Shown here: one piece after another, positions 149 to 9,897 of the stretch | How the letters are laid out: each line of letters begins with the position of its first letter | Position numbering within the stretch: position 1 is the stretch's first letter | NCBI RefSeq assembly: GCF_003334255.1 | Contig: NZ_QOWU01000085.1 | Source of the DNA: Escherichia coli | GTDB lineage: Bacteria > Pseudomonadota > Gammaproteobacteria > Enterobacterales > Enterobacteriaceae | DNA: 10,225 bases | Reading direction: 5' to 3' (one strand) | Program-made: the position numbers and the translations under genes | The notes under the pieces: generated by a model | Database searches by the model: none | Told to the model about the DNA's origin: nothing | The model's input: only the letters and a program-made list of their open reading frames with translations

Positions 149-445
149 ATGACACAAACAAGTTACAGCAAACTATCCCAGCGTGACGTTGATCGCGCAG
201 AAACAGATTTACTCATCAACCTGTCAGCTCTGACGCAAAGGGGACTGGCAAAGATGATTGGCTGCCATGAATCGAAGGTCAGTCGTACCGACTGGCGATA
301 CATCGCGGCGATTTTATGCGCGTTCCAGATGGCATCTGATATCAGTCCGATCAGCCGGGCTTTCCAGCATGCCATTAACGTTCATGCAAATAAAAAACGT
401 CCGGTTGGGGCCGGACGTTCTGAGCAAATCCTGATGAATATCTGA
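149..445 (+). CDS. cII: CII-like transcriptional activator (lambda cII family)
   Basis: 98 aa, about the length of lambda CII. The C-terminus ANKKRPVGAGRSEQILMNI closely parallels what I recall of lambda CII (TNKKRPAATERSEQIQMEF), and the central SKVSRTDW segment parallels CII's DNA-binding region (SQISRWKRDW). It sits directly upstream of the replication genes, as in lambda. Confidence 0.8.
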   Translation: MTQTSYSKLSQRDVDRAETDLLINLSALTQRGLAKMIGCHESKVSRTDWRYIAAILCAFQMASDISPISRAFQHAINVHANKKRPVGAGRSEQILMNI

Positions 446-608: not shown

Positions 609-1691
609 ATGCGTAATTACGCAACAATTTCACCTCAGTTCTGGTTAGGCGATACAGGGCGAAAACTAAGGAAGTCTGGTCCGGAATGTATGGTAGTGGC
701 GTTGTATATGATGACCTCGCCTCATTCCAATATGCTGGGCCTTTATTACCTGCCTGTTTTGTACATTGCTCACGAAACCGGACTTGCTCCTGAAGGGGCT
801 TCTAAGGGGCTTCAAATGGCTTGCGAGGCTGGTTTTTGCAGCTATGACCATGATTCTGAGGTTGTATGGGTGCATGAAATGGCAGCATGGCAGGTTGGTG
901 AATCGCTGAAACCTGGCGATAACCGTTGTGCTGGGGTAAGAAATGAATATTCCGCGTTGCTGGAAAATCCTTTTTTATCATCCTTTTATGATAGATATAA
1001 GGATGATTTCCACCTGGATGTCAGACGTGAATCATGTCGGAAAATTGAAGCCCCTTCAGAGCCCCTTTCAAGCCAAGAACAGGAACAGGAACAGGAACAG
1101 GAAAGGGATAAAACCCTTCTGGTCCATGGCGAAAAAATCGCCACGGACCCACAGGGGGATTTTTGTCCTGTTCTGACTGAACGTCCAGGACCAGATGGCA
1201 CGACACCGGAAGCAGATTCCGGGCGTTGTGTGCAGCAGGTGCTGATCGTCGAACCGGAGCAACAACGCCAACCGCAGCAGCCTGAAGCCGATTCCGCGAT
1301 GAGCGGGAAGCCGATTGGGTTAACCCGGGCGATGCCGGGACCGTCTGCGGGACGAGTTGATTATCCTGACGTGTTCGAACGGGTCTGGCGTGAATATCCG
1401 CATCGGGCAGGGTCAAACCCGAAGAAATCCGCGTTCAATGCCTGGAGGGCCAGATTACGCGAAGGGGTGTCACCGGATGTCGTGCTGGATGGCGTGAGGC
1501 GTTACGCAAGATACCTGGAGGCTACCGGGAAAGCGGGAACTGAATTTGTTCAGCAGGCATCGACGTTTTTTGGCCCGAACAGGAATTTCGAAAATCCGTG
1601 GTCGCTGCCGAAGGCTGGCGCAGTCAGCCTGCGTTGCGTGAATCACATTTCTGAACCGGACACCGAAATTCCGCCGGGTTTCAGGGGGTAA
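609..1691 (+). CDS. Phage replication initiation protein (O-like functional analogue; resembles the so-called replication protein 15 type of lambdoid prophages)
   Basis: 360 aa with SD GAGGGG 4-5 nt before the ATG. It follows cII and is immediately followed by a DnaC-like loader gene. It contains an internal AT-rich segment with inverted and tandem repeats (origin-like) and an acidic (QE)n linker between two domains. The family assignment is from memory only. Confidence 0.6.
   Translation: MRNYATISPQFWLGDTGRKLRKSGPECMVVALYMMTSPHSNMLGLYYLPVLYIAHETGLAPEGASKGLQMACEAGFCSYDHDSEVVWVHEMAAWQVGESLKPGDNRCAGVRNEYSALLENPFLSSFYDRYKDDFHLDVRRESCRKIEAPSEPLSSQEQEQEQEQERDKTLLVHGEKIATDPQGDFCPVLTERPGPDGTTPEADSGRCVQQVLIVEPEQQRQPQQPEADSAMSGKPIGLTRAMPGPSAGRVDYPDVFERVWREYPHRAGSNPKKSAFNAWRARLREGVSPDVVLDGVRRYARYLEATGKAGTEFVQQASTFFGPNRNFENPWSLPKAGAVSLRCVNHISEPDTEIPPGFRG
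977..1007. repeat. Perfect 9-bp inverted repeat (atcatcctt / aaggatgat) with 13-nt AT-rich loop, inside the replication gene
   Basis: Read directly: atcatcctt-ttatgatagatat-aaggatgat, in an AT-rich stretch (about 960..1010) flanked by short direct repeats tcctttt(tt)at. Confidence 0.7.
1077..1106. repeat. Hexanucleotide tandem repeat (GAACAG)x4 plus one degenerate unit, in frame within the replication gene
   Basis: gaacag gaacag gaacag gaacag gaaagg, translated as the QEQEQEQE linker of the 360-aa protein. Confidence 0.9.
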
Positions 1692-1697
1692 TCAGCC

Positions 1698-2438
1698 ATG
1701 AAAAACATTTCGACAGGAGGGATTCTTGAACGGGTGCGCCGTCTGGCACCACCGCACGTGGCAGCACCGTTCCGGACGACCGACGAATGGCGGGAATGGC
1801 AACTGGCTGAGGGCCGGAAGCGCAGCGAGGAAGTTAACCGCCAGAATCACCAGACGCGGGTTGAAAAAATCCTGAATCGTTCGGGCATCCAGCCGCTTCA
1901 CAGGAAGTGCTCATTCGGGAACTACCGGGTGCAGAACGACGGTCAGCGCCATGCTCTGAGCCAGGCGAAATCCATTGTCGATGAATTGATGACCGGTTAT
2001 ACAAACTTCGTGTTCAGCGGGAATCCGGGAACCGGAAAAAATCATCTGGCGGCGGCTGTGGGTAATCGTCTGCTGAAGGCCGGTAAATCCGTGATAGTGG
2101 TCACCGTGGCGGATGTGATGAGCGCGTTACATGCCAGCTATGACGACGGACTGTCAGGGGAAAAATTTTTGCGTGAACTGTGCGAAGTGGACCTCCTGGT
2201 TCTTGACGAAATTGGCATCCAGCGTGAGACGAAAAACGAGCAGGTGGTACTGCACCAGATTGTTGACCGCCGGACGGCATCACTGCGCAGTGTCGGGATG
2301 CTGACAAACCTGAATCATGCCGCAATGAGCACGCTTCTTGGTGAGAGGATTATGGACCGGATGACCATGAACGGTGGTCGTTGGGTGAATTTTAACTGGG
2401 AGAGCTGGCGGTCAAACGTTGGACGTCAGGGTATGTGA
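1698..2438 (+). CDS. DnaC-like replicative helicase loader (AAA+ ATPase, IstB/DnaC family)
   Basis: 246 aa with Walker A GNPGTGKNHLAAA and Walker B LLVLDEIG. The start is 7 nt after the stop of the initiator gene, with SD AGGGGG upstream. This is the classic position of the lambda P analogue in phi80/Rac-type replication modules. Confidence 0.85.
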   Translation: MKNISTGGILERVRRLAPPHVAAPFRTTDEWREWQLAEGRKRSEEVNRQNHQTRVEKILNRSGIQPLHRKCSFGNYRVQNDGQRHALSQAKSIVDELMTGYTNFVFSGNPGTGKNHLAAAVGNRLLKAGKSVIVVTVADVMSALHASYDDGLSGEKFLRELCEVDLLVLDEIGIQRETKNEQVVLHQIVDRRTASLRSVGMLTNLNHAAMSTLLGERIMDRMTMNGGRWVNFNWESWRSNVGRQGM

Positions 2439-2463
2439 GAATTTTTGACGAGGTAAATTTTCG

Positions 2464-3234
2464 ATGGAAACCGTATTGCATGCACTGAAAGCGATGGGAA
2501 AAGCCAATTCTGTTGAACTGGCGGCGCGGCTTGATATCAGCCGTGAAGAAGTTCTCAACGAACTGTGGGAGCTCAAAAAAAATGGCGTTGTTGATAAAAC
2601 GGGTCACACCTGGTTTCTGGCTGTCGAAGGTGAAGCCGGGGTAACCGAAGAGCGGCCAGTAAAATCTGAAACACAGGATATGCTGACCGAAGAGGTCGCT
2701 CCAAAAGTTAGCGCTGACATGATGATTGAGTTTATCTCTCAGGAGGGGGCTAAAACCTGTGAAGAAATAGCGGGTAAGTTCGGAGTTACCACTCGCAAGG
2801 TTGCTTCCACGCTGGCGGTGGTAACCGCAACGGGGCGGCTGGCACGCGTTAATCAGAACGGTAAATTTCGTTACTGCATGCCGGGGGGTAATTTACCAGC
2901 AGATCCGAAAACCGCGCCGGTAACGGAAAATGATGGTAAGGCCTTTCCTCAGCCAGCAGGTGCTGCGTTACCAGTCCGGGAAGCCGCAACACAGGAAGAA
3001 ATTAAAACAGAAACTGTGGCGGACATTGTGCAGCCGTTGCCATCGTTTACCGAAACGCAAGCAGATGAGCTGATTTTTCCGTCCCTTCGCAGGGCAAACC
3101 TGGCGCTGCGCAGGGCGAAAAGTGATGTTCAGAAGTGGGAGCGAGTCTGCGCCGCGCTGCGGGAGCTGAATAAACACCGGGATATTTTCAGTTCGATTGC
3201 TGATATTCCGGTTCATTCACCGACAACAAAGTGA
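2464..3234 (+). CDS. Hypothetical phage protein with two winged-helix-like N-terminal modules
   Basis: 256 aa, ATG with GAGG 10 nt upstream. Two similar HTH-like segments (about residues 1-55 and 85-135) are followed by a low-complexity linker and a basic helical C-terminus. No family recognised. Confidence 0.6.
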   Translation: METVLHALKAMGKANSVELAARLDISREEVLNELWELKKNGVVDKTGHTWFLAVEGEAGVTEERPVKSETQDMLTEEVAPKVSADMMIEFISQEGAKTCEEIAGKFGVTTRKVASTLAVVTATGRLARVNQNGKFRYCMPGGNLPADPKTAPVTENDGKAFPQPAGAALPVREAATQEEIKTETVADIVQPLPSFTETQADELIFPSLRRANLALRRAKSDVQKWERVCAALRELNKHRDIFSSIADIPVHSPTTK

Positions 3235-3249
3235 TCTCCGGAGGTGCTT

Positions 3250-3681
3250 ATGACAAGAGCATTTACACCAGAAGAGCGGGAAAAAATTAAGGGGCTGATC
3301 GTGGAGTTCGTACGCCTTAACGGACGAGGCACGATTCGGCAGTTATCGGATGAAATTGGTGTCAGTCATGCGTCTGTCGGTCGTTTATGCATGGAGCTGG
3401 CCGCCAGTGGTGATGTTTACAATTCCGGTTACGGAGTATTCCCGTCTGAACAGGCTCGTAAGGACTGGCAAAATGCCCGCAAAAAACTCTCAAGGGCAAA
3501 GTCGAAGAAACCGGTTGTCGTTGATCCAGACCTTATCCGGGCATTACCAGATGGGGAAATACGGCGCTACGACAGACGCTACAACACAATTTGTCGCGAG
3601 TGCCGTAACAGCGAAACGATGCAGCGTGTGCTGGCATTCTGGCGAGGGAGTGCAGAGGGATTGATGTTCTCCCCGTCGTGA
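3250..3681 (+). CDS. Hypothetical HTH-containing phage protein
   Basis: 143 aa from ATG 3250 with SD GGAGG 5 nt upstream (the track ORF starts 6 nt earlier at a GTG). The N-terminus IRQLSDEIGVSHASVGRLCMEL is HTH-like; the C-terminus has a CxxC pair. Confidence 0.55.
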   Translation: MTRAFTPEEREKIKGLIVEFVRLNGRGTIRQLSDEIGVSHASVGRLCMELAASGDVYNSGYGVFPSEQARKDWQNARKKLSRAKSKKPVVVDPDLIRALPDGEIRRYDRRYNTICRECRNSETMQRVLAFWRGSAEGLMFSPS

Positions 3682-3690
3682 ATGACGGGG
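3671..3690. terminator. Hairpin between convergent genes (ccccgtc-gtgaat-gacgggg), overlapping the stop codon at 3679..3681
   Basis: 7-bp perfect stem with 6-nt loop, read directly. There is no clear U-tract on either strand, so its terminator function is uncertain. Confidence 0.35.
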
Positions 3691-3713
3691 GCTTACGTGT
3701 TCAGAAAAGTGAT

Positions 3714-4388
3714 TCATATAGAGGCTGAATCTGATCTTTTTTGTTCACGTCTGGCTTCCACCATTGCAGGCAGAGTGAAGGCGTAGACTAAAAACATTTC
3801 GGTAAAACTCAGGATCTGGCTTGCCTCAATTGGTGTGAAAACTTCATCTGTATGAACTGCTTTATTGGCATCAATTCGTACAATATGAGCCCATTCCTTC
3901 ATCTGTTCAGTGATCAGGCCTTTTTTGTAAATCATCTGAATACGTTGCGACAGCGATTCTTTTCCTGCTTCATCGCCGAGCAGTTTTTTCGTGGAGATAT
4001 CGAGGACTCTGCGACAAAGAATAACCACTGTGTCGTACCGCCTCCTCTGTAAATCCTCTTTTGCCTCAACAAAAGTACGGTCTGCAACCGGGGGCGTATA
4101 TTCTGGTGCGGTAATTTTTTTGACCACAGGATAGATCTTGCGGAAACGGTACTGGCTATTTCCTGAAATCAGAATATCGAGGTCTTTTTTCTGGCTTTCC
4201 GCCATGGGACCGTGATAGTGGTCTGATGGGATTTCAACAATAGCAACACCTCCTCGATGACAACTTCTGCATACAAAAGCGACGTTAAAAAAAGGTGTTT
4301 TTTCAATTTGTTTTTCGGCAAATGCCTCAATAACAGCTCGCTCTTTTAAACAGTGCGGGCATGTGATATCAAAGGAGACTAAACCCAT
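3714..4388 (-). CDS. Zinc-ribbon / DUF4145-like protein, candidate single-gene defence (abortive-infection-type) factor
   Basis: 225 aa from the ATG at 4388, with SD GAGGAA 5 nt upstream on the minus strand; the track ORF extends to 4460 without any SD. The N-terminus has CPHC...CRSC (4-Cys ribbon). The C-terminal ~100 aa (RRVLDISTKKLLGDEAG...IVRIDANKAVHTDEVFTPIEASQILSFTEMFLVYAF) matches my recollection of the DUF4145 consensus (R..GN.aaH followed by EA...L). It is on the opposite strand to flanking phage genes and in visibly lower-GC sequence. Confidence 0.7.
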   Translation of the reverse strand: MGLVSFDITCPHCLKERAVIEAFAEKQIEKTPFFNVAFVCRSCHRGGVAIVEIPSDHYHGPMAESQKKDLDILISGNSQYRFRKIYPVVKKITAPEYTPPVADRTFVEAKEDLQRRRYDTVVILCRRVLDISTKKLLGDEAGKESLSQRIQMIYKKGLITEQMKEWAHIVRIDANKAVHTDEVFTPIEASQILSFTEMFLVYAFTLPAMVEARREQKRSDSASI

Positions 4389-4632
4389 GGATATTCCTCG
4401 CGAAATTAAAGAAATTAACGAAATCATTGAGGTTACTGATCGCCCCGAGTTTACCCTCATGCGTCGTTATGAAACAGGAACCGACGAACAAAAATACATC
4501 ATGGTTGCAGCATTGGCTGTGATGGCGATAGAAAGGGAGCGAAGGGAAAAGGACGTAATGGTTATTCCTGAGAGAAATGATTCACCGGATTTGAGATGGC
4601 AGGAGCCGGAGTGGGATGTGGTAATCCGGTGA
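4387..4632 (+). CDS. Small acidic hypothetical protein (81 aa), divergent from the DUF4145-like gene
   Basis: ATG at 4387 with SD AGGAG 9 nt upstream, ending at a GC hairpin shared with the convergent antitoxin gene. Its start codon overlaps the minus-strand start inside the palindrome CCATGG. No family recognised; it could be spurious. Confidence 0.35.
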   Translation: MDIPREIKEINEIIEVTDRPEFTLMRRYETGTDEQKYIMVAALAVMAIERERREKDVMVIPERNDSPDLRWQEPEWDVVIR

Positions 4633-4653
4633 TTGATATTTCTCTGGGGTAAA

Positions 4654-4674
4654 GCGCCGCCAGAATGACGGCGC
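4654..4674. terminator. GC-rich hairpin (gcgccg-ccagaatga-cggcgc) between convergent genes
   Basis: 6-bp GC stem read directly. On the minus strand it is followed by TTTACCCC, so it may terminate the toxin-antitoxin transcript; the U-tract is weak. Confidence 0.3.
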
Positions 4675-4686
4675 GGTAGTGGAGAG

Positions 4687-4995
4687 TTAAACGAAGCGGA
4701 TCTGGAGTTTTTTCCCTGTAGCACGGGCGAATTTTTTCAGTGTGGCAAATGATGGGCCGCTTGTACCTGATGCAAGATTGCTTTCCATTCTGGTTATCGC
4801 AGTCGCTTTTGTTCCCATACGTTCAGCAACTTCAGCCTGGGTTAAGCCAGCTTCTTTTCGTGCTGCCAGCATTTCATCAAGTAGTGCGAATTCATCGGCG
4901 ATGGCGTCGTATTCTGCTTTTACTGCGGGGTTAGACAACATTTTTTCTACCATATCATCGTGTGTCATGGTAGGTGGGGTACGTTTACCAGTCAT
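4687..4995 (-). CDS. HTH (XRE-like) antitoxin of a type II toxin-antitoxin pair
   Basis: 102 aa with a strong SD AAGGAGG 6 nt upstream on the minus strand. The HTH GLTQAEVAERMGTKATAITRMES is preceded by a helical N-terminal region. Its start overlaps the 3' end of the upstream toxin gene by 11 nt. Confidence 0.8.
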   Translation of the reverse strand: MTGKRTPPTMTHDDMVEKMLSNPAVKAEYDAIADEFALLDEMLAARKEAGLTQAEVAERMGTKATAITRMESNLASGTSGPSFATLKKFARATGKKLQIRFV

Positions 4996-5326
4996 GCTTA
5001 ACCTCCTTCATTCTGGTTTCAGCTTTTCTAAGCTCGGCAGGTGGAGTTTTTTGCGTTTTCTTTACAAAGCTATGCAACATAATGATTCGCTTTCCTTTTA
5101 GCGTGCAGTAAAAAACACGCCCTATGCCTTCCGAGCCCTTAAGGCGGATTTCAAACAAACCGTCGCCAAATGCCTCTGTATGCGGGGAACCAAGATTAGC
5201 TCCGTAAATACGCATTTTCTCCGTGTACCGAATGTACCGGGCTTGTAAGGTCTCAGGAAGAGAAAGGATCTCAGCTTCAACCTCGTCACTGTAGTATTCG
5301 ATAATGTAGTTCATGAGAGTAAACAT
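4985..5326 (-). CDS. RelE/ParE-superfamily toxin (Gp49/HigB-like) of a type II toxin-antitoxin pair
   Basis: 113 aa from the ATG at 5326. The C-terminal half GRVFYCTLKGKRIIMLHSFVKKTQKTPPAELRKAETRMKEV fits the Gp49/HigB-type pattern. The toxin-first gene order and 11-nt overlap with the antitoxin are typical of HigBA-type modules. The GTG-initiated 42-codon extension in the track ORF is not expected for this family. Confidence 0.8.
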   Translation of the reverse strand: MFTLMNYIIEYYSDEVEAEILSLPETLQARYIRYTEKMRIYGANLGSPHTEAFGDGLFEIRLKGSEGIGRVFYCTLKGKRIIMLHSFVKKTQKTPPAELRKAETRMKEVKHDW

Positions 5327-5386: not shown

Positions 5387-5448
5387 CTTCGCACGCCAGC
5401 AAAATCTGGCGTCGGGATTAGGAACCCCGGATAGAAACCGCGACAGAG

Positions 5449-5470
5449 ACACGCCGCGAGCGTGTTTTTT
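5449..5470 (+). terminator. Intrinsic terminator (acacgc-cgcga-gcgtgt followed by TTTTT)
   Basis: 6-bp stem, 5-nt loop and T5 tract, read directly. It lies about 60-80 nt downstream of the + strand promoter, which would delimit a short transcript. Confidence 0.55.
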
Positions 5471-5633
5471 ATTGTCGTATGCACACGCACATCTGAATTA
5501 TGGTGGGGCGTATAGGGGAGCTGAAAAGCTCGCCGGTTGGTTTCCCGGTAGTTCCTAACCCTGTACGTCTCGCCACCCGATGATTAGGAACCTGACGGTG
5601 GTGATAGTTTAGAAACCACTCGAGGGCGTCATT

Positions 5634-6305
5634 ATGACAACTCAAGTTTCTGTTGAAACACTCTCCACGATTACTTACAAGCAGATCCCCGTTATCACTA
5701 CCGAACTTTTGGCGCACCTTTACGGCACAGAAGCTATTCGTATTCGCCAGAATCACCACGAAAACAAAGGTCGTTTCATTGAGGAAAAACACTTCTTCAA
5801 ACTTGAAGGTGAAACTTTACGTGAGTTCAAGCACAGAGTAGCTTTTAACTACTCTGTGAAAATTGCCCGTAACGTTCGCTCCCTCATCCTATGGACAGAA
5901 CGCGGCGCAGCCCGTCATGCAAAAATGCTCGAAACCGATCGGGCGTGGGAAGTGTTCGAAAAACTGGAAGACTGCTATTTCAGCCAGGGAAAAACAACAC
6001 AAACCGAACAGCAGTCGCAGATTCAGCCACAATTCACAGCCGAGGAAATCATCCTCCTTTGCTACATGCAACTCTGGATGGAAAAAGCCCAGGACCTTAA
6101 CAAGCAGCTGTACCCCATAATGAAAGAGCTGAACTCCTCATACACGAACAAGCTGTATGACATTGCGTTTGAGACTATCTACATGGTGACGAAGAACAGA
6201 GACGCGCTACTAAGGGAGGTAACACGTCTCGACATGTCAAGTTCCGTTATCCAGCGGGCCATGCCAATGCTGAAAAGCCTGCGGGCAAGACAATTTGAAT
6301 TCTGA
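5634..6305 (+). CDS. Roi-like DNA-binding protein (ORF6N-type N-terminal domain, antirepressor-like)
   Basis: 223 aa with SD GAGGG 7 nt upstream. The N-terminal region (TELLAHLYGTEAIRIRQNHHENKGRFIEEKHFFKLEGE...LILWTERGAARHAKMLETDRAWEVFEKL) resembles the ORF6N/Roi-type domain as I recall it. It sits just before ninB, as roi-like genes do in HK022-type nin regions. Confidence 0.55.
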   Translation: MTTQVSVETLSTITYKQIPVITTELLAHLYGTEAIRIRQNHHENKGRFIEEKHFFKLEGETLREFKHRVAFNYSVKIARNVRSLILWTERGAARHAKMLETDRAWEVFEKLEDCYFSQGKTTQTEQQSQIQPQFTAEEIILLCYMQLWMEKAQDLNKQLYPIMKELNSSYTNKLYDIAFETIYMVTKNRDALLREVTRLDMSSSVIQRAMPMLKSLRARQFEF

Positions 6306-9068: not shown

Positions 9069-9383
9069 TCCAAACTGAGCCGTAGCCTCTGGGTGTCCTG
9101 AATTCATCAGTGATAGTTACGCTGCGGCCTTCTACATACGATTTTTGTGAAAAGCGGGTGGCAAGAGGCTGCGAAATTTTTAAATACCTCACAATTCCAC
9201 AGCTTGATGATTGTCTGGCTGCCGGAGAATTTGTTAAAAATTGCATCGCGTGGTGAATCCCCCTCAGCGGCGGGGCATCTGGCAAAGTGTATGATCCAGC
9301 GAACATGCAAATTCAGTAGCCAGGCTGAATTTACCGGGAGGCACCTGGCACCATGCGACAGACAGAAATTAGGCTATACTTCA

Positions 9384-9406
9384 GCCCCTCTCCGGAGGGG
9401 CTTTTC
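9384..9406 (+). terminator. Intrinsic terminator of unit 1 (gcccctc-tccg-gaggggc followed by TTTTC)
   Basis: Perfect 7-bp GC-rich stem, tccg tetraloop and T tract, read directly. Confidence 0.75.
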
Positions 9407-9596
9407 TGTGCAGGATGTGTCACAGTTTCCTGAATTCTGAGTACTGTCCTGTTACTCAGGGTGCTATATTTTCTGACGTGATGAAAGTCTGCCGGAAGGC
9501 GGAACGTATCGGAAATGACCCAGTAGAGAAAACGTTGACTCAGATACCGATGCTGAGTTACCGGGAAACCGGCATCACATGACCGCTATCCTTCCA

Positions 9597-9619: not shown

Positions 9620-9866
9620 ACTGCAGAAAACAGTTTTCCCGTAAAATGCCACGTTACTCACAATTCAGGCTGGCGATTATTGTCTGGCCAGCGGGAAGTT
9701 TGTTAAAAAAATATGGCATGGTGAATCCCCCTGTGCGGAGGGGCATATCAGCGACAGGTGTTTGGTCACACCCCTTATCCTTTCTGGTGCGGGTTCAGGT
9801 GCTGATACTGAACTCACCGGGAGGCACCCTGCACCATGCATGAACGGTACATAGCGCTACTCTCCA

Positions 9867-9890
9867 GCCCCTCTCCGGAGGGGCTTTCTT
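9867..9890 (+). terminator. Intrinsic terminator of unit 3 (gcccctc-tccg-gaggggc followed by TTTCTT)
   Basis: Stem and loop identical to the unit 1 terminator, read directly. Confidence 0.75.
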
Positions 9891-9897
9891 GTTGGAT

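Follow-up and report, generated by a model that had tools for sequence, protein, structure and literature searches.

Results

Two genes of a lambdoid prophage encode YdaW-type and Ren-like proteins

We analysed 10,225 nucleotides (nt) of Escherichia coli DNA (contig NZ_QOWU01000085.1 of assembly GCF_003334255.1, hereafter the window), which is the early-right region of a lambdoid (Rac/Stx-like) E. coli prophage, and within it two adjacent open reading frames (ORFs), ORF256 and ORF143. An earlier note, made from the letters alone, had placed two uncharacterised helix-turn-helix (HTH) genes between the replication and accessory regions, and had recognised neither family. The two ORFs do occupy that place, ahead of a variable accessory island, and RefSeq and Pfam agree on them. 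The families proved to be catalogued ones: it is close to certain that ORF256 belongs to DUF1627/YdaW (phrog_630), and ORF143 to DUF977/LygF/Ren-like proteins (phrog_142). Over 1,000 complete E. coli genomes carry near-identical copies. The genes and their start signals are as follows.

2464-3234, plus strand: ORF256, YdaW-type DUF1627 protein of 256 amino acids (aa), ATG start (RefSeq WP_054518628.1, "DUF1627 domain-containing protein")
3250-3681, plus strand: ORF143, LygF-type DUF977 protein of 143 aa, a long-form lambda Ren homologue (RefSeq WP_000196185.1, "DUF977 family protein")
2450-2453, plus strand: GAGG, ribosome-binding site of ORF256, 10 nt before the ATG, read from the sequence
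3240-3244, plus strand: GGAGG, ribosome-binding site of ORF143, 5 nt before the ATG at 3250, read from the sequence

In a 99.9% identical prophage, RefSeq gives the same two coding sequences, the second one starting at the ATG at window position 3250 and yielding 143 aa. An alternative start of ORF143 is a GTG at 3244; since the GGAGG located 5 nt from the ATG overlaps this GTG, the 143-aa form is favoured as the likely product. ORF256 begins 25 nt after the helicase loader gene and ORF143 15 nt after ORF256, on the same strand as the replication genes. No sigma-70-like promoter was found in a scan of 2300-4700, nor did scanning reveal a terminator-like site in the stretch from the DnaC-like loader gene up to the ORF143 start, or a convincing one around the two genes; one weak stem-loop (5 pairs) is present inside ORF143, at 3396-3408. 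Given the short gaps, the shared strand and the lack of promoter or terminator in between, we read both genes as members of the operon that holds the replication genes. On this reading, ORF256 and ORF143 are accessory genes transcribed together within the early-right (pR-type) operon of the Rac/Stx-like lambdoid prophage.

ORF256 is an intact YdaW protein with two winged helices

ORF256 matched Pfam DUF1627 (PF07789) with an expectation value (E) of 1.2e-95 over residues 91-243 (model positions 1-153 of 155), and phrog_630 with E 4.8e-131 (model positions 1-247 of 253). It has the architecture of the DUF1627/YdaW family, i.e. an N-terminal winged helix, a second winged helix and a conserved C-terminal helix, and is the intact, full-length form of the Rac prophage YdaW type. 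Across 43 aligned full-length homologues, with identities as low as 20%, all three structured blocks were kept. The family is small, as a library-wide HMMER search gave just 164 representatives (50% identity clusters) at E ≤1e-3 among 1.84 billion. The AlphaFold2 model of ORF256 had a mean predicted local distance difference test score (pLDDT) of 77 and a predicted template modelling score of 0.35, and does not predict the relative orientation of the modules, which are listed here.

2464-2628, plus strand: winged-helix module 1, residues 1-55, net acidic; helices 4-11, 16-23 and 27-39, strands 43-46 and 49-52; pLDDT 94-97
2629-2712, plus strand: linker 1, residues 56-83, disordered; pLDDT 44-66; length range in the family 13-41 aa
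2713-2886, plus strand: winged-helix module 2, residues 84-141, net basic, Ren-like; helices 84-94, 99-106 and 110-123, strands 127-131 and 134-138; pLDDT ~95
2887-3084, plus strand: linker 2, residues 142-207, disordered, acidic, rich in Pro, Ala and Glu; pLDDT 42-69 over 141-210 (10-residue block means)
3085-3201, plus strand: basic C-terminal helix, residues 208-246, conserved; helices 208-237 and 239-246; pLDDT 91-96

Residues L34 and W50 of module 1 are invariant among the 43 homologues. The mean net charge of this module in the family is -2.0, and its "recognition" helix is acidic too. Module 2 has a family mean charge of +3.6, and linker 2 of -6.2; the latter varies from 44 to 85 aa in length and includes a short motif that is conserved, (I/L)P(S/T)F(T). 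The C-terminal helix (family mean charge +6.5) has the consensus I..EIRRTKS.L..LEKLR.AVR.L.KH, in which R216 is nearly invariant, and it also matches phrog_29124 and phrog_1888.

An internal duplication of a winged-helix-like module had been suggested for the 256-aa protein. Pairwise BLASTP between the two halves of ORF256 found nothing. Comparison of the module 1 and module 2 sub-alignments by hhalign gave a probability of 95% (E 3e-8, 53 columns, 11% identity) and a score of 38, to be compared with 9.4 ± 2.0, and 17 at most, for column-shuffled alignments. That ORF256 holds two copies of one winged-helix fold is therefore confirmed, by significance of the repeat as well as by the two confidently modelled modules. 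That they arose by tandem duplication is not proven, because module 1 matches ArsR/MntR-type profiles about as well as it matches module 2.

The same fold recurs in ORF143. Against the winged helix of the Ren/DUF977 proteins, hhalign gave a probability of 96% (E 8e-9) for module 2 and of 88% (E 2.8e-6) for module 1, and the three modules all match one another at the profile level, with scores of 31 to 41 versus ~9 ± 2 after shuffling. Moreover, phrog_142 matches residues 86-137 of ORF256 (E 2.4e-6) and residues 17-68 of Rac YdaW (E 4e-5). A kinship between the C-terminal helix of ORF256 (I..EIRRTKS) and the C-terminal motif of Ren (I.RECR.S) had been suspected from the consensus, and was rejected (hhalign E 0.2-0.5).

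ORF143 is a long-form homologue of lambda Ren

ORF143 matched Pfam DUF977 (PF06163) with E 1.8e-25 over residues 1-135 (model positions 1-133 of 134), and phrog_142, named "Ren-like exclusion protein", with E 3.5e-40 (positions 1-114 of 116). Lambda Ren itself (NC_001416) matched phrog_142 with E 1.6e-41, and no Pfam family. The AlphaFold2 model of ORF143 (mean pLDDT 75) and the alignments delimit three elements.

3268-3441, plus strand: winged helix, residues 7-64; helices 7-24, 29-36 and 40-53 and a beta hairpin at 57-64; pLDDT >90
3448-3504, plus strand: basic helix 4, residues 67-85; pLDDT 87-92; residues 66-88 have a net charge of +7
3583-3642, plus strand: Ren C-terminal motif, N112-T-I-C115-R-E-C118-R-N-S-E-T-M-Q-R-V-L-A-F-W131, from BLASTP against lambda Ren and the alignment

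Residues 112-131 of ORF143 and 73-92 of lambda Ren are 50% identical (BLASTP, E 2e-5), and this is the sole region detected pairwise. We aligned lambda Ren and the Ren proteins of HK225, Cronobacter phiES15, Enterobacter ENT1, Klebsiella phage 6 and Bas106 with DUF977 proteins. The winged helix and the C-terminal motif N-x-I-x-x-E-C-R-x-S-x-x-M-x-R-V-L are common to all; in the motif, N112 and R126 are invariant, and E117, C118, R119, S121, M124 and L128 are at least 90% conserved. Basic helix 4 and the flexible linker are insertions specific to the DUF977 branch, the helix being absent from the 96-aa lambda Ren. Residues 86-112 are disordered in the model, and the C-terminal helices (116-119 and 122-138) have pLDDT values of 50 to 76. 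In the MAFFT alignment the wing Trp of lambda Ren falls on W73 of ORF143, a residue that the model places in helix 67-85, so that their equivalence is uncertain.

The HTH and the C-terminal CxxC read earlier in the 143-aa protein are both present, the former as the winged helix and the latter as C115-x-x-C118 (codons 3592-3594 and 3601-3603). The CxxC is kept in 112 of 120 close DUF977 relatives among the matches listed, and also in HK225. In four Ren-branch proteins, namely lambda Ren and the Ren of Klebsiella, Enterobacter and Cronobacter, C115 is replaced by Phe. The other cysteine of ORF143, C47, is Ala in most relatives. As C115 is Phe in these four proteins and no second ligand pair exists, we rejected the CxxC, which offers two ligands only, as a family-wide zinc or metal site. 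Nor is ORF143 a zinc finger or zinc ribbon with four Cys/His ligands, having a single CxxC and a C47 that is not conserved.

The best matches of the Ren/DUF977 profile among PDB structures were the Z-beta domain of human ADAR1 (1xmk, E 6.3e-5), full-length ADAR1 (E 1.4e-7) and the Z-alpha domain of fish PKZ (E 4e-3). PKZ Z-alpha superposes on the winged helix of ORF143 with a template modelling (TM) score of 0.81 (25% identity), and on an ORF256 module with a TM score of 0.85. These matches would suit a Ren-type winged helix that reads left-handed or distorted nucleic acid as Z-alpha and Z-beta do, just as the retention of the CxxC throughout the DUF977 branch and in HK225 would suit an intermolecular zinc site. 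We nevertheless consider such a reader, zinc site or combination of both highly improbable. Membership of ORF143 in the Z-alpha/Z-beta family was rejected, as the Z-DNA contact residues are not conserved: the positions of N173 and Y177 are Gly and Met and variable across the family, and the wing has no Pro-Pro. The likeness is no better than that to minimal winged helices in general, since FeoC and MarR score equally, and the objections raised above to a metal site (two ligands, Phe in four Ren proteins, Ala for C47) apply here as well.

Fold comparisons and the question of a regulator

Sequence searches against solved structures found no relative beyond generic winged helices. Foldseek searches of PDB and BFVD likewise gave only generic winged-helix or tandem winged-helix matches, with a best E of 7e-4 for ORF256 and of at least 3e-3 for ORF143. 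The top matches of the ORF256 model were the tandem winged-helix scaffolds ScpB, ESCRT-II, UFL1/DDRGK1 and SelB, and those of single modules were the minimal winged helices FeoC, Z-alpha, MarR, GntR and IclR, none of them specific. Pfam HTH matches of the two proteins all had E of 0.007 or higher. Neither protein matched a well-characterised structural or replication family of known function, the families found being of the DUF or Ren type.

The label of regulator, given to both proteins in the earlier note, was an assumption. In favour of classical, sequence-specific transcription regulators of the winged-helix type, made as delayed-early products and controlling phage or host genes, fold searches and weak profile matches assign all three modules to winged helices of the MarR, ArsR, GntR or IclR type. 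Further, ORF143 is basic (isoelectric point 9.8), as are module 2 and the C-terminal helix of ORF256, and YdaW figures among the predicted E. coli transcription factors without assigned function (PMC9308461). However, no curated regulator family cut-off was reached: the NCBIfam scores were 25.3 bits versus a cut-off of 55 for ArsR/SmtB, and 22.7 versus 153 for MntR, and we do not place either protein in the MarR, ArsR-SmtB or MntR families. The flanking dimerisation helices of the MarR/ArsR type are absent from the ORF256 and ORF143 models, module 1 carries an acidic recognition helix across its family, and no repeated or palindromic operator-like site stood out in a scan around the two genes. 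Protein-binding scaffolds, among them ScpB, ESCRT-II and UFL1/DDRGK1, also typically have tandem winged helices with long disordered linkers between them. Finally, lambda Ren is not known as a regulator. Taken together, a role of the pair as classical regulators appears unlikely.

Conservation and gene order

The segment carrying both ORFs (1.35 kb) is 99.9% identical to prophages of sequenced E. coli strains, and 99.7% identical to Escherichia phage PhiR5_2. A match was found in 2,566 of the 5,426 complete E. coli genomes, with at least 80% of the segment covered in 1,136; the carriers, about half of E. coli genomes, include Stx-converting and Rac-type prophages. GenBank phage records, such as those of PhiR5_2, Rac and Shigella phages 75/02 and POCJ13, name the genes ydaW (or "YdaW family") and lygF. 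As a discovery the two genes are ordinary, being known and widely distributed members of DUF/Ren families annotated in thousands of genomes, and the sequence finding itself adds nothing new. Handles for experiments are the domain map of YdaW (two winged helices and a basic helix), the Ren C-terminal motif as the element common to LygF and Ren, the conserved coupling to the helicase or loader gene, and phage PhiR5_2, which forms plaques on K-12 and has both genes.

Two phage records stood out by their host names. "Actinobacillus phage vB_Apl-pPE4" (PP818812.1) has a DUF1627 gene 78% identical to ORF256 at the protein level, and "Campylobacter phage CJLB-4" (MW057783.1) has a lambda ren that is 100% identical. 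Both records look like E. coli lambdoid sequence with a misattributed host name.

The neighbourhood of the pair is conserved. Among 80 IMG/VR loci with DUF1627 genes 86-91% identical, the gene upstream of DUF1627 was a loader in all 80 (DnaC-like in 46, lambda-P-like in 34), and DUF977 came directly 3' of DUF1627 in 73. More distant DUF1627 genes were found after a DnaB-like helicase gene and before a 106-aa DUF977-like protein (phrog_2391) without Ren motif (24% identity); two genes 3' of a lambda-P-like gene, with a 123-aa gene (weak Lpa-like activator match) in between (26%); and after an IstB/DnaC-like loader, without DUF977 (28%). In lambda, HK225, phiES15, Klebsiella phage 6 and Bas106, the gene directly 3' of P or DnaC is a Ren homologue, and its start codon often overlaps the preceding stop codon. 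Each gene also occurs without the other (PPompW, HannyBb and locus L096); in HannyBb, the DUF977 gene directly follows an O-like replication-initiation gene, and no separate loader gene is annotated. Since each gene occurs alone, and since the type of the upstream loader or helicase varies, we conclude that the two form a separable accessory cassette that closes the replication module and does not depend on the loader type.

Two predicted proteins derived from ENA, P0075 (372 aa) and P0081 (403 aa), have DUF1627 and DUF977 in one chain, on one contig each. Rare natural fusions are one explanation, artefacts of read-through or frameshift in the adjacent genes the other.

This gene order raises the possibility of auxiliary replication factors that would modulate helicase loading or assembly of the origin complex, for instance by tempering the toxicity of the loader or by tethering O, loader and DnaB, any exclusion phenotype being then a side effect. 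Whichever of three unrelated loader/helicase types is present, the position right behind its gene is conserved; translation of ren is often coupled to that of P or DnaC; and in Thomason et al. (preprint 10.1101/2021.04.19.439022), Ren is described as "likely involved in DNA replication" and two-hybrid contacts of Rex proteins with O and with Ren are reported. We find this account improbable all the same. Both genes are dispensable in many related phages, ren is a nonessential gene of lambda (PMC10695390), and neither P-lethality nor replicative killing needs Ren (PMC3640518). Distant DUF1627 members are found outside replication modules, and the independence of the pair from the loader type argues against a specific loader partner.

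A tentative role in escape from exclusion

Lambda Ren lets lambda escape Rex exclusion. In 1980, Toothman and Herskowitz reportedly found that ren mutants are sensitive to it. Phage records annotate lambda Ren as an exclusion protein or Rex inhibitor. The earlier note had linked genes in this slot to superinfection exclusion or replication control, which fits insofar as ORF143 is a homologue of lambda Ren; its role should be anti-exclusion rather than exclusion, since Ren allows escape from Rex.

We tentatively favour, as one possible account, that both proteins are delayed-early accessory products used at the replication stage, ORF143 being the counterpart of Ren (anti-Rex-exclusion) and ORF256 a related adaptor. 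After induction or infection, ORF256 and ORF143 would be produced alongside the replication proteins and would serve, during the replication stage, as small adaptors that bind nucleic acid or protein, rather than as classical operon regulators. Like Ren, ORF143 would keep a Rex-type exclusion (abortive infection) from aborting phage replication and development, probably through its conserved C-terminal motif and a basic surface binding nucleic acid or protein. ORF256 would be its related, separable modular partner, with a counter-defence or replication-stage role. The two-hybrid contacts cited above are consistent with this account, and, in an overexpression screen (preprint 10.1101/2020.06.22.160242), K-12 ydaW was one of the prophage genes found to block RcaT, the retron-Sen2 toxin.

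Several observations weigh against the account. ORF143 belongs to the same operon and region as canonical ren, but ORF256 stands between the loader gene and ORF143. The retron result comes from a screen with an overexpressed, truncated protein comprising the two winged helices only; owing to this truncation, K-12 ydaW data bear on just a part of the protein. For Ren, Thomason et al. go no further than a likely involvement in DNA replication (preprint 10.1101/2021.04.19.439022). PADLOC-DB gave no match for ORF143, and only HTH-level matches for ORF256 (Csa3/CARF-HTH models, E 1.7e-6 over 46 residues). Some distant relatives of DUF1627 reside outside replication modules, after a RecE-like exonuclease gene or in a conjugative-element context. 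Lastly, in the near-identical prophage of strain G1/2, the annotation shows no rexAB-like genes next to cI, and the genes found there match no RexA/RexB-type family; at the rexAB position of this prophage (locus L001, 4793-5554, minus strand) is a gene for a KilA-N protein matching the BstA abortive-infection family (PADLOC E 2.5e-20). A search of the literature on LygF, DUF1627 and DUF977 found no functional study, the matches to "LygF" being fish lysozyme genes.

The distant DUF1627-like proteins outside replication modules (~26-30% identity) are at L095 3377-4165, L098 3127-3846 and L099 3097-3816. One of the three follows a Dam-type methyltransferase gene amid type IV secretion and conjugation genes, and the others come directly after a RecE-like exonuclease VIII gene.

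A bolder version of the adaptor account, rather unlikely in our estimation, is that YdaW and LygF form a conserved two-protein counter-defence cassette. With its three Ren-type winged helices, it would travel with the helicase-loading step of lambdoid replication and block abortive-infection systems that sense phage replication complexes, Rex-like ones through the Ren motif and retron-type toxins through the tandem winged helices of YdaW. If true, it would be among the most widespread anti-defence modules in E. coli prophages.

Other features of the window

The genes around ORF256 and ORF143 are the following.

149-445, plus strand: cII
609-1691, plus strand: O/DnaD-like initiator gene, 360 aa, intact
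1698-2438, plus strand: DnaC-like helicase loader gene (phrog_50, E 7e-82; RefSeq name "ATP-binding protein"), directly upstream of ORF256
4387-4632, plus strand: small ORF (phrog_8371), which overlaps the edge of the minus-strand island
4687-4995, minus strand: HTH antitoxin gene
4985-5314, minus strand: RelE/ParE toxin gene

Between the Ren-like gene and the nin genes lies a moron island of the minus strand (3714-5314). Going 3' from ORF143, it encodes a DUF4145 protein (phrog_1305, with a weak PADLOC match to PD-T7-4, E 2e-3), then the HTH antitoxin and the RelE/ParE toxin. Distal to it follow, in this order, an ORF6N antirepressor, NinB, NinE, DUF1364, RusA, NinH and a Q-like antiterminator. 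Two Rfam matches at gathering level, isrK (69 bits) and C4 antisense RNA (66 bits), were found on the plus strand at 5393-5470 and 5496-5580, directly 5' of the ORF6N antirepressor gene (5634-6305). The set constitutes a P1/P7-type c4/ant (immI-like) antirepressor control module within the lambdoid nin region. Two tandem copies of the STnc100 small RNA family (139 and 130 bits; 9218-9411 and 9687-9896, plus strand) lie 3' of the Q-like antiterminator gene.

A direct repeat of ~85 nt (509-578 versus 1258-1350) consists of 36 nt at 97% and 49 nt at 92% identity, and the small annotated ORF at 460-588 (42 aa) is a duplicate of an internal piece of the O/DnaD-like initiator gene (QQxQPQQPEAD...). 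This initiator gene also contains a (GAACAG)n run at 1074-1102, which encodes an EQEQEQ linker. It is annotated as frameshifted in the 99.9% identical G1/2 prophage, and is intact in the window.

Comparison with known systems

Lambda Ren (gene ren, NP_040633) and ORF143 match the same PHROG with equal strength. Both are basic proteins with an N-terminal winged helix and a C-terminal motif ending in V-L-x-x-Y/W, and they share a map place, at the end of the replication module and before the nin region. They differ in length, ORF143 having 143 aa and lambda Ren 96 aa, and ORF143 has an added basic helix (67-85) and a flexible linker of 25 aa. ORF143 has a Cys where lambda Ren has a Phe, hence its CxxC; Pfam DUF977 recognises ORF143 and not lambda Ren; their pairwise similarity is confined to 20 residues; and ORF143 is set apart from the loader gene by ORF256.

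The DUF977 domain has been recognised as a winged-helix fold, sometimes fused to Fic domains (Kinch et al. 2009, PMC2686095). In contrast to such fusions, ORF143 is a stand-alone protein with the Ren C-terminal motif. The sister group phrog_2391, exemplified by the 106-aa protein of locus L094, has kept the winged helix and, unlike ORF143, has no Ren motif.

ScpB, ESCRT-II, UFL1/DDRGK1 and the SelB C-terminus have, like ORF256, two or more minimal winged helices in series (Foldseek E ~7e-4 to 5e-3). The likeness is at the level of fold only (TM scores 0.2-0.3, 14-19% identity), without sequence relationship, and the modules of ORF256, unlike those of the scaffolds, are separated by disordered linkers and have no predicted relative orientation.

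The closest comparison for ORF256 is YdaW of the Rac prophage of K-12 (b1361, 186 aa), which is 58% identical over residues 1-154, a region covering both winged helices, and then diverges. Unlike ORF256, K-12 YdaW is a truncated remnant without the C-terminal helix. In Rac, ydaW comes after the gene for the DnaC-like YdaV, the same position as that of ORF256, and in intact relatives of Rac the next gene is lygF, as in the window.

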